NCBI GenBank assembly: GCA_001784435.1
Contig: MFQZ01000010.1
Coordinates: 169,960 to 233,959, forward strand
DNA: 64,000 nt
From: Candidatus Magasanikbacteria bacterium RIFOXYC2_FULL_42_28
GTDB lineage: Bacteria > Patescibacteriota > Patescibacteriia > Magasanikbacterales > GWA2-37-8
Direction of reading: 5' to 3'
Shown one piece after another: positions 61,930 to 64,000 of the stretch; within the stretch, counting starts at the first letter, position 1; the number at the start of each line of letters is the position of its first letter. The position numbers were made by a program, and so were the translations under genes. The notes beneath the pieces are model-generated. The model searched no databases, was not told the origin of the DNA, and saw nothing but the letters and a program-made list of their open reading frames with translations.

Positions 61930-64000
61930 ATGGCCAATAAATATCATCAAGCCGTTGCAAAAAATTTAACTCGTTCTACCATTAGATGGCGTGTGGCCGG
62001 CGTGGCGATTTTGTTAGTCGCGTCGCTAACGGTCGTGTTGCCTAATTATGCCAATTCCGGAATCAATTGGATTAATTCCAAGACCAATATCGGCTTGCCA
62101 CAGTTGCCGGCCGGCGGTTTTAATTTAGGTTTGGATTTACAGGGTGGCGCGCATTTAATTTATGAGGCCAAAACCGACAATATCGCGGCGGCCGACCGCG
62201 CTGATTCCGTTGAGGGTGTGCGTGATGTGATTGAACGTCGTGTTCGTGGTGGTTTGGGTGTGGCCGAGCCGCTCGTCCAGACAACGCGCGTGGGTGAGAC
62301 CTATCGCGTGATTGTGGAGTTGCCGGGTGTTAAGGATGTTAATCAGGCGATCCAAATGATTGGCGGTACGCCGGTGTTGGAATTTAAAGAAGAAAATAAC
62401 GAGCCACCGCGCCCCTTGACCGCGACAGAACAAAAAGAATTAAAGGATTTTAATACCGCGGCGAAAAAGAAAGCGAACGAAGCATTGGTCGCGGCCAAAA
62501 CCGATTTTGCCGGAGCGGTAACAAAATATACCGAAGATGACCGCAGTAAAAATAACGGCGGGGATATCGGTTTTATTGACAGTCGAACCTTTCCTGAGAT
62601 TTTTGCTTGGGCCAAAACCGTTAAAGACGGTGAAATTGGCAAAAATTTAGTTGAAAGCGCCGAAGGTTATAGTGTCGTTAAACGCGTGGCTGAAAAAGAC
62701 GGCGAACGCTATGTCTCGGCTTCGCATATTTTAATTTGTTTCCTTGGCGCCGAGCGCTGTGATAATCCGCAATATACACGTGATCAAGCGACTGCTAAAA
62801 TTGCCGAATTAAAAACCAAAGCCACTCCACAGAATTTCGCGCAACTGGCGCGGGAAAATTCCACGGAACCGGGCGCGGCTGACCGCGAAGGGGACTTGGG
62901 TAAATTTAAAAAGGGCGAAATGGTGCCGGCTTTTGAAGCGGTGGCGTTTGACCTGCCCGTGGGGACAATTTCCGAACCGGTGGAGACCCAATTTGGTTTT
63001 CATTTAATTTATAAAACAAATGATGAAACGGAAAAGCAATATCAAGTAAGCAGAATTTTGGCGCGCACTAAAACTGAAATTGATATTGTGCCACCGGTAT
63101 CGCAGTGGAAGCCAACTGGTTTGTCCGGTAAGCAACTCGCGCGCGCGGAAGTTACTGAAGATTATCAGACCGGCCAAGTGCAAGTCAGTTTAAATTTTGA
63201 TGATGAAGGCGTTAAATTATTTTCGGAAATTACTACACGTAATGTTGGCAAGCCAGTGGCCATTCTGTTAGATGGTGAAGAAATCAGTGTGCCGACAGTT
63301 AATGAGCCGATTTTATCCGGCAGTGCCGTTATTTCCGGCGGGTTTACTTTAATGGAAGCGAAATTATTGGCGCAACGGCTTAATTCCGGCGCTCTGCCGG
63401 TGCCGGTTGAACTCGTAAGTCAACAGAGTGTGGGTGCGACGCTGGGATTTGATTCTTTAAATAAAAGTTTTAAAGCCGGTTTAATTGGTTTGGCAGTGGT
63501 TATATTATTCATGATTTTGTACTACCGCTTGTCGGGTATTCTCGCGGCTTTGAGTTTGGCGGTTTATGCGGCTTTGAGTTTGGCTATCTTTAAATTAGTC
63601 GGCGTTACCCTAACTCTTTCCGGTATCGCCGGTTTCGTTCTATCAATTGGTATGGCGGTGGACGCCAATGTGCTGGTATTTGAACGTCTTAAAGAAGAGT
63701 TGCGTTTGGGCAAAAGTTTGAAATCGGCCATGGAAGAGGCGTTTGTGCGCGCCTGGACATCAATTCGGGACAGCAACATCACCGGCCTTATCAGTTGTGT
63801 GTTTATGGTTTGGATGGGCGTGGGTTTTGTGCAGGGCTTTGCCGTTACTTTGGCTATTGGTATCCTGGTATCAATGTTTTCCGCCGTTATTATTACTCGC
63901 ACTTTGGCGCGTTGGATTTTTAGTTGGTTTAAAGAAGATGGCAATTGGTTATTTTTGGGACATCTTAAAAAAGACGCGTCTGCCAAGTCGGTCACCAATA
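61930..64000 (+). CDS. secD: SecD (or fused SecDF) with two parvulin-type PPIase domains inserted in the periplasmic head; 3'-truncated by window edge
   Basis: SecD P1 motifs ([16 protein letters not shown]), then two PpiC-like domains ([11 protein letters not shown]...; [42 protein letters not shown]), then SecD TM bundle ([25 protein letters not shown]). Confidence 0.75.
   Translation, partial: [690 protein letters not shown]

Follow-up and report, generated by a model that had tools for sequence, protein, structure and literature searches.

The way in which proteins leaving the SecYEG channel are handed over to folding factors is an open question, which has so far been approached through weak, transient complexes such as those of SurA and PpiD with the E. 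coli holo-translocon or the PrsA-like dome of Mycoplasma. In the motor protein SecDF, the P1 head's cavity has been found to contact precursors, and the head adopts Super-F, F and I forms as it swings (PMC5974789). The holo-translocon is bound by SurA, whose recruitment to the exit site by the periplasmic domains of SecDF has been suggested (PMC9987972), while PpiD-YfgM docks on SecYEG (PMC9643414). In Mycoplasma pneumoniae, a dome of PrsA-like lipoproteins sits on the Sec translocon, and one catalytically intact PPIC domain contacts the emerging substrate (bioRxiv 10.1101/2025.04.25.650208). Here, we describe a secDF gene at the end of a 64,000-nucleotide stretch of Candidatus Magasanikbacteria bacterium RIFOXYC2_FULL_42_28 (contig MFQZ01000010.1, positions 169,960 to 233,959; this whole stretch is called the window), whose SecD portion carries two parvulin-family modules within the extracytoplasmic P1 domain. 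Such a protein had been proposed in a preliminary description of the sequence, and Pfam and NCBIfam scans have shown it to be a real SecD with both modules, all peptide strings quoted at that stage being present. The arrangement is common among relatives of this candidate-phylum bacterium. Full-text literature searches have returned no description of a SecD-parvulin/PpiC fusion; the component families are known, and the architecture is visible as database domain matches and apparently undescribed in the literature searched.

The features on which the argument is built are as follows, in positions of the window and residues of the protein.

61930..64000, + strand: secDF open reading frame (ORF), SecD portion (codons 1-690), from the stop-free translation and truncated by the window end.
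61987..62049, + strand: transmembrane helix 1 (TM1), residues about 20-40, from sequence, an AlphaFold2 (AF2) helix at 15-36 and a topology modelled on solved SecDF structures.
62107..62397, + strand: P1 base, N-terminal part, residues 60-156, with the conserved strand PVLEFKEEN at its end (Pfam Sec_GG and SecD_1st; aligned to Thermus SecDF 33-116).
62419..62697, + strand: core of the first parvulin, D1, from alpha1 to beta4, residues 164-256 (Rotamase 43.3 bits; both catalytic His positions lost).
62704..63024, + strand: second parvulin, D2, in canonical strand order, residues 259-365 (Rotamase 79.1 bits; alignment to PrsA and Par structures; predicted local distance difference test, pLDDT, about 90).
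62725-62727, 62866-62868, 62986-62988 and 63001-63003, + strand: catalytic set of D2, namely H266, E313, T353 and H358, from alignment columns.
62737-62760, + strand: Cys pair of D2, C270 and C277, in the beta1-alpha1 loop, from alignment columns.
63034..63069, + strand: strand of residues 369-380, the probable displaced beta1 (beta1') of D1, with its His replaced by R375 (AF2 strands, SecDs with a single parvulin, re-permutation).
63082..63414, + strand: P1 head subdomain, residues 385-495 (Pfam SecDF_P1_head, 97 bits; aligned to Thermus SecDF 140-263).
63427..63924, + strand: TM2-TM6 of SecD, residues 500-665 (Pfam SecD_SecF_C).
63925..64000, + strand: linker after the SecD TMs, in most relatives a C-terminal tail before the stop and here continuous with SecF (P0001 sequence).

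The gene has been shown to encode a SecDF in which the parts of SecD are intact, namely the GG motif, both subdomains of P1 (base and head) and the conserved Asp of TM4. Despite the insert, the whole protein scores 379.3 bits with the NCBIfam equivalog model TIGR01129 (secD; cutoff 244.4), and the Pfam domains follow in the order Sec_GG (63-82), SecD_1st (95-156), two Rotamase stretches (E = 7e-33), SecDF_P1_head (396-491) and SecD_SecF_C (493-663). Accordingly, TM1, a large P1 of base and head, and five further TMs have been found colinear with solved SecDF (alignments to 3AQP and 5XAM), and the top Foldseek matches are 5YHF, 5XAP and 3AQP. The boundaries of base and head are based on Pfam models and on alignments to sequences of the Protein Data Bank (PDB). 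With the SecDF of Thermus thermophilus and Deinococcus radiodurans (3AQP, 5YHF, 5XAP), the window protein shares the colinear series TM1, P1 and TM2-6 as well as the GG motif, the base strand LEFK/R, the head and the TM4 Asp. The latter residue, D578 (63661-63663), aligns with the Asp of Thermus GAAVDGNVLSFERIKEE and of Deinococcus SecDF and is invariant in 119 homologues; by Thermus numbering, we take it to be the essential TM4 Asp. A conserved, essential Asp has been described in TM4 of SecDF (PMC5974789). The Lys/Arg-rich cytoplasmic N-terminus together with TM1 places everything until TM2 outside the cell.

Between these SecD parts, about 220 extra residues match Pfam Rotamase twice. In the alignment to Thermus SecDF, residues 64-153 correspond to 33-116 and residues 377-660 to 140-422, the two parvulins taking the place of roughly 23 Thermus residues that lie between 116 and 140, and none of the matched solved SecDF structures has a foldase domain. 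When residues 157-376 are deleted in silico, the remainder aligns colinearly to Deinococcus SecDF 45-262 with a sole gap of 7 residues at the junction. By these alignments, the insert sits right after PVLEFKEEN, at the connection from P1 base to P1 head and not inside the head. The earlier placement of the parvulins in P1 has therefore held, whereas their assignment to the head has given way to the base-to-head junction, and the TM bundle of SecD does lie downstream of them, as had been stated, but not directly, as the head (about 385-495) intervenes. An insertion hot-spot common with E. coli SecD has been considered and rejected, since, once the insert is taken out, the extra residues of the E. 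coli protein lie elsewhere, past the GG motif and before the VAEP region.

Of the two modules, D2 is the complete one. Scanned alone, residues 254-389 reach 79.1 bits with Rotamase (PF00639; gathering score 21.7) and cover profile positions 1-96 of 97. Column counts have been taken from a close set of 119 aligned homologues with 61-72% identity, in which H266 and H358 are present throughout (119/119), residue 313, the counterpart of the conserved PrsA Asp in the alignment, is Glu in 113 sequences and Asp in the other 6, residue 353 is Thr in 115 and Ser in the other 4, and L323, M331 and F335, aligning with hydrophobic pocket positions, are invariant or nearly so. In a wider set of about 40 diverse homologues, which includes representatives of 50% clusters only 34-47% identical in the insert, every D2-bearing member has kept H266, D/E313, T/S353 and H358. 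To these residues we assign the catalytic and pocket roles known from parvulin enzymology. Judged by its aligned residues, D2 has thus been shown to be a canonical parvulin with the full active-site set, in line with the textbook parvulin signature ascribed to the second module before. Two further residues, C270 and C277, do not vary among the close homologues and are jointly absent in four diverse members (L023, P0141, P0176, P0264), a joint loss that fits a disulfide in an extracytoplasmic domain.

D1 is of a different kind, and the earlier count of two PpiC/parvulin modules stands for the family membership of both and for the complete catalytic set of D2, but D1 lacks both catalytic His and is most likely permuted. 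Residues 151-260, scanned alone, reach 43.3 bits with Rotamase over profile positions 5-95, beta1 being unmatched in the native order. In the close set, 106 homologues have Asn at position 248 and 13 have Ser, while at position 375 Arg is found in 110 and His in 4, and both positions vary freely in the wider set. From its residues, D1 is seen to have lost both catalytic histidines and is, on this evidence, not a parvulin competent as peptidyl-prolyl isomerase (PPIase). The mean pairwise identity by region has been found to be 0.80 for the P1 base, 0.75 for the P1 head, 0.72 for TM2-6, 0.59 for D2 and 0.51 for D1.

The missing beta1 of D1 may be found behind D2. AF2, run on the alignment of 119 sequences, gives a pLDDT of about 90 over residues 160-380, with a predicted template modelling score (pTM) of 0.40, and predicts two continuous 24-residue strands, 246-269 and 356-379, in which beta4 of D1 runs on into beta1 of D2 and beta4 of D2 into the strand that follows D2. 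A simpler form of the module is provided by 48 SecD clusters with a single parvulin (543-595 aa, including L029; Falkowbacteria, Buchananbacteria and other Patescibacteria), which keep both His, the Asp and the Thr/Ser. Their order is helices, SEDPGS, GGELGF, TQFGYHII (beta4), a loop and EVRxxHILIRTK (beta1'). The pattern GGxLG ... TQFGYH, loop, xxHILI is found in 46 of the 48 clusters, the HILI His being present in 46/46 and the beta4 His in 45/46 of these at a spacing of 20-26 residues. As the canonical beta1 motif is placed after beta4, the single parvulin is circularly permuted. When the HILI strand of L029 is moved to the front, its Rotamase score of 79.3 bits over profile positions 17-96 rises to 85.6 bits over 1-96. 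The same operation on D1 of the window protein has yielded a small gain, from 34.0 to 37.3 bits with Rotamase_3 and from a coverage of 30-115 to 15-115. Aligned to D2 by hhalign, D1 in native, re-permuted or N-strand-extended form has given the same 77-column core with a probability of 97%, in which beta1 is never reached. Based on sequence order and predicted secondary structure, D1 is most likely a circularly permuted parvulin of residues 164-256 and 369-380 with beta1 after beta4, and we infer that D2 is nested in its beta4-beta1' hairpin, which would join the two sheets by a long two-stranded ribbon.

In a scan of one genome per species, the insert has been found in SecD across both junctions in 29 species, 28 of them confirmed ORF by ORF. 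Magasanikbacteria provide most of these, next to Falkowbacteria, Uhrbacteria, "Parcubacteria" and further Patescibacteria, and protein searches add Komeilibacteria, Kuenenbacteria and Buchananbacteria. The homologues, annotated simply as "protein translocase subunit SecD", form more than 160 protein clusters at 90% identity and about 20 at 50% identity. In public records, many metagenome-assembled genomes with this Patescibacteria-type SecD bear the name "uncultured Gammaproteobacteria bacterium" or "Xanthomonadaceae bacterium" (L005, L008-L010, L012, L016, L021, L024, L025 and L029; protein P0304); these titles are probably placeholder names or the result of mis-binned taxonomy. Three loci, L024-L026, carry SecDs with D1 only, in which beta4 (GLNIVQRIS) is linked by a short loop to LYTIARIFVQTK, the YxIARIF strand. 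The clean absence of D2 from their ORFs (L024:5575-7350, L025:751-2541, L026:3040-4815), which belong to close relatives, points to a secondary loss of the catalytic domain. The single-parvulin SecD is possibly the ancestral form. A single permuted and catalytically complete parvulin may have been acquired by SecD first, as in Falkowbacteria, Buchananbacteria and others, a second parvulin may then have been inserted into the first in Magasanik-, Kuenen-, Komeili- and Uhrbacteria, and D1 would afterwards have lost its catalytic histidines.

Parts of the module occur outside SecD as well. Five clusters of small proteins of about 280-297 aa (P0202, P0211, P0222, P0246 and P0277; loci L033-L035, with the gene at L033:3947-4807) combine an N-terminal TM anchor with a domain resembling SecDF_P1_head (PF22599, about 60 bits) and a D2-type parvulin. 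This parvulin shares the Cys pair of D2 and, in P0202 and P0222, also its STEPGA/STELGA motif, and the gene of P0211 lies directly downstream of a gene for a Trypsin_2 (HtrA-like) protease. Head and parvulin are thus seen to recur as a unit, and these proteins may be free-standing, membrane-anchored foldases derived from SecD parts. Among the best matches of the insert are also free-standing proteins with three tandem parvulins (about 360-430 aa; P0123, P0126, P0127) at 36-42% identity; a two-domain relative, P0156, comes from Candidatus Eiseniibacteriota. Matches of about 655-689 aa have been examined as divergent SecD fusions and rejected, as Pfam shows Rotamase domains alone. Within the 64 kb window, family-specific parvulin hidden Markov models run against the six-frame translation have matched this ORF solely, with no other parvulin-like ORF found.

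To our knowledge, the host cell has no outer membrane. SecDF is an accessory motor of the Sec translocon that runs on protons. We consider it rather probable that the protein is a functional SecDF motor with a rigid two-parvulin module at the P1 base-head junction which acts as a foldase at the Sec exit. A secretory chain would leave SecYEG unfolded and be captured by the P1 head, whereupon D2 would isomerise Xaa-Pro bonds in the emerging chain. Perhaps jointly with the cavity of the head, the degenerate D1 could hold the chain or position D2, serving as a scaffold or a secondary binding surface. The module would then be a membrane-tethered foldase of the PrsA/PpiD/SurA type at the translocon exit, and its embedding in SecD a covalent version of the foldase-at-translocon principle. 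A more far-reaching proposal is that SecD, in a large part of the Patescibacteria, is an export-folding machine of one polypeptide, in which a permuted parvulin was placed at the hinge of the proton-driven P1 arm and became, in Magasanikbacteria and relatives, the scaffold for a nested active parvulin; this would be the main or only extracytoplasmic prolyl isomerase, replacing free PrsA, SurA or PpiD and working in step with the P1 swing. We hold this extended version to be conceivable, although we would sooner doubt than expect it.

Each of the described foldases resembles the window protein in part. PrsA is a lipoprotein foldase of Firmicutes (4WO7, 6VJ6, 1ZK6), and it is PrsA-type parvulins that D2 resembles most (E = 2e-15); D2 has Glu at the position of the PrsA Asp, and both are anchored on the outside of the cytoplasmic membrane. 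Unlike PrsA, however, the window protein has neither the N/C chaperone-dimerisation domain nor a lipoprotein signal, its tether being the covalent insertion into SecD, and the NCBIfam PrsA models PRK03002, PRK03095 and PRK02998 stay at 72-81 bits, far below their cutoffs of 343-361, with the parvulin part alone matching. SurA, which is the best PDB match of D1, likewise has tandem parvulins of which one is degenerate (P1, inactive) and one has the full catalytic set (P2, active), but it is a soluble protein with chaperone core domains at the N- and C-terminal ends, and its parvulins stand side by side, both in canonical order. The SurA model PRK10770 has reached 59.5 bits (cutoff 394), and the Pfam scan has found no SurA_N domain. 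The PpiD-YfgM complex of E. coli, whose structure 8ZHT is among the weaker Foldseek matches, is similar in placing a membrane-anchored chaperone with a parvulin at the translocon exit (PMC9643414), yet PpiD stands outside SecD, being a single-pass protein of its own in which one parvulin-like domain is combined with chaperone domains. Another parallel is the dome of the Mdp lipoproteins on SecYEG-SecDF of Mycoplasma pneumoniae, also a genome-reduced organism, where PPIC foldases are physically coupled to Sec and a single PPIC domain retains its catalytic residues (bioRxiv 10.1101/2025.04.25.650208). There, three large lipoproteins form a chamber and are coupled to the translocon non-covalently, whereas in the window protein about 220 residues are inserted covalently into SecD. 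Related, too, are the single-parvulin SecDs of other Patescibacteria (Falkowbacteria, Buchananbacteria) with the same insertion point and the same permuted order (helices first, HILI last); they differ in having one domain with both His in place of a degenerate outer domain with a nested, canonical second parvulin.

That a frameshift, an overlooked stop codon or a misassembly has joined a parvulin gene and secD has practically no chance of being true: nothing in its favour has been found, the sole oddity of the gene model being the database start at 61912 inside a repeat, while the parvulins are internal, with SecD sequence on either side in a single, stop-free frame, and the same architecture recurs in the 28 species loci that were checked, as well as in hundreds of independent assemblies. 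The check that had been called for is therefore answered, since an insert that is internal, is present in at least 29 species representatives and is conserved across the clusters counted above is not a frameshift artefact, and a fusion of two genes is ruled out. A different objection is that the module has no catalytic role and is a chaperone, holdase or spacer which binds unfolded chains or extends the reach of SecD, so that isomerisation would be irrelevant. Inactive parvulin domains are common in translocon-associated chaperones, both catalytic His are gone from D1, and some Magasanikbacteria-like lineages (L024-L026) have deleted D2 and retained the rest; the module would then be comparable to the parvulin domain of PpiD or to the P1 domain of SurA (PpiD context, PMC9643414). 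Against this, the catalytic residues of D2 have stayed invariant down to 34-47% identity, whereas the equivalent positions of D1 drift, and the single-parvulin SecDs retain both His, the Asp and the Thr/Ser, which is the pattern expected from selection on catalysis. We regard a purely non-catalytic module as unlikely. Less likely by far is a built-in PPIase that acts on SecD itself by isomerising the IVPP prolines P388-P389 at the entry of the P1 head and so gates or times the head swing. These two prolines are nearly invariant and stand immediately after the module at the base-to-head connection, and the driver of the F-to-I swing has been stated to be unknown (PMC5974789), but the idea is pure inference, Thermus has prolines here too (KPEDLGPP) and no parvulin, and the free-standing head-plus-parvulin proteins have no motor to regulate.

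Several observations also weigh against a Sec-exit foldase as we have outlined it. Conserved catalytic residues, as read from an alignment, are no proof of catalysis, and the PPIase activity of B. subtilis PrsA has been reported to be dispensable in vivo, so that D2, even if active, might count chiefly for the chaperone surface it offers. As D2 is absent from the close relatives L024-L026, it is not indispensable to SecD function. The overall pTM of 0.40 leaves the arrangement of the domains and their geometry in the AF2 model uncertain, and how the strands pair and how far D2 lies from the head cavity are likewise drawn from prediction. The hhalign core, which lacks beta1, neither supports nor contradicts the permutation of D1. 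As to the history, the opposite polarity could apply, with a deletion joining D1 and D2 into the single form.

Regarding the gene itself, ATG 61930 begins a frame of 690 codons that is stop-free to the window end, and the encoded protein is 100% identical to P0001 ("hypothetical protein A3J93_03940", 996 aa, Candidatus Magasanikbacteria RIFOXYC2_FULL_42), the identical protein being present on 5 contigs from several sources. P0001 contains a complete SecF at residues about 700-996, and at locus L001 the gene ends 2991 nt past the database start. The gene of the window is hence a secDF fusion, as in Thermus, and the continuation into SecF, which had been asked about earlier, is confirmed. Such a fusion occurs in L001 and L002 (RIFOXYD2_FULL_41_14, a second organism) only; almost all other loci that extend beyond secD have secF as an ORF of its own immediately downstream. 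The database gene model of P0001 starts 6 codons upstream at ATG 61912; most homologues use a start equivalent to 61930, and the overlap of a palindromic repeat with the database start argues for ATG 61930 as the true one. Two neighbouring features precede the gene.

58907..61783, + strand: secA, directly upstream of secDF (ORF list; Pfam SecA domains in the same gene of L001).
61845..61917, + strand: palindromic repeat between secA and secDF (predicted RNA fold -50.1 kcal/mol, z = -6.9).

The repeat has the form TGTCATTCCCGCGAAAGCGGGAATCCAG ... CTGGATCCCCGTTTTCACGGGGATGACA and overlaps the start codon at 61912; its predicted hairpin is a possible terminator or attenuator, and a related, imperfect copy has been found at 19276-19302. 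Two strong palindromes also lie in frame inside secA, at 60959-61072 and 59405-59482. One belongs to the same TGTCATTCC...GAAATGACA family and encodes the peptide VIPSEARADEESP... (-46 kcal/mol), and the other is GC-rich and encodes SPSPSPRAGEG (-34.5 kcal/mol). From their sequence, both look like repeat elements inserted in frame into a coding gene. In-frame insertion into coding genes has been described for the palindromic elements of Rickettsia.

Taken by its domain composition, the SecD of the window suggests a coupling of export and folding in one protein. The conserved covalent fusion of SecD and parvulin provides a "Rosetta stone" argument that the outward domain of SecDF and the parvulins share substrate and place, and at the same time gives a defined construct for biochemistry and structural study. 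Furthermore, the SecDs form a natural series, from no parvulin over one permuted and active parvulin to a degenerate permuted one with a nested active one, and finally the degenerate one alone, which is useful for the study of circular permutation, domain nesting and the loss of catalysis. For candidate-phylum bacteria, the fusion gives a hint how a minimal genome may economise on envelope folding factors.

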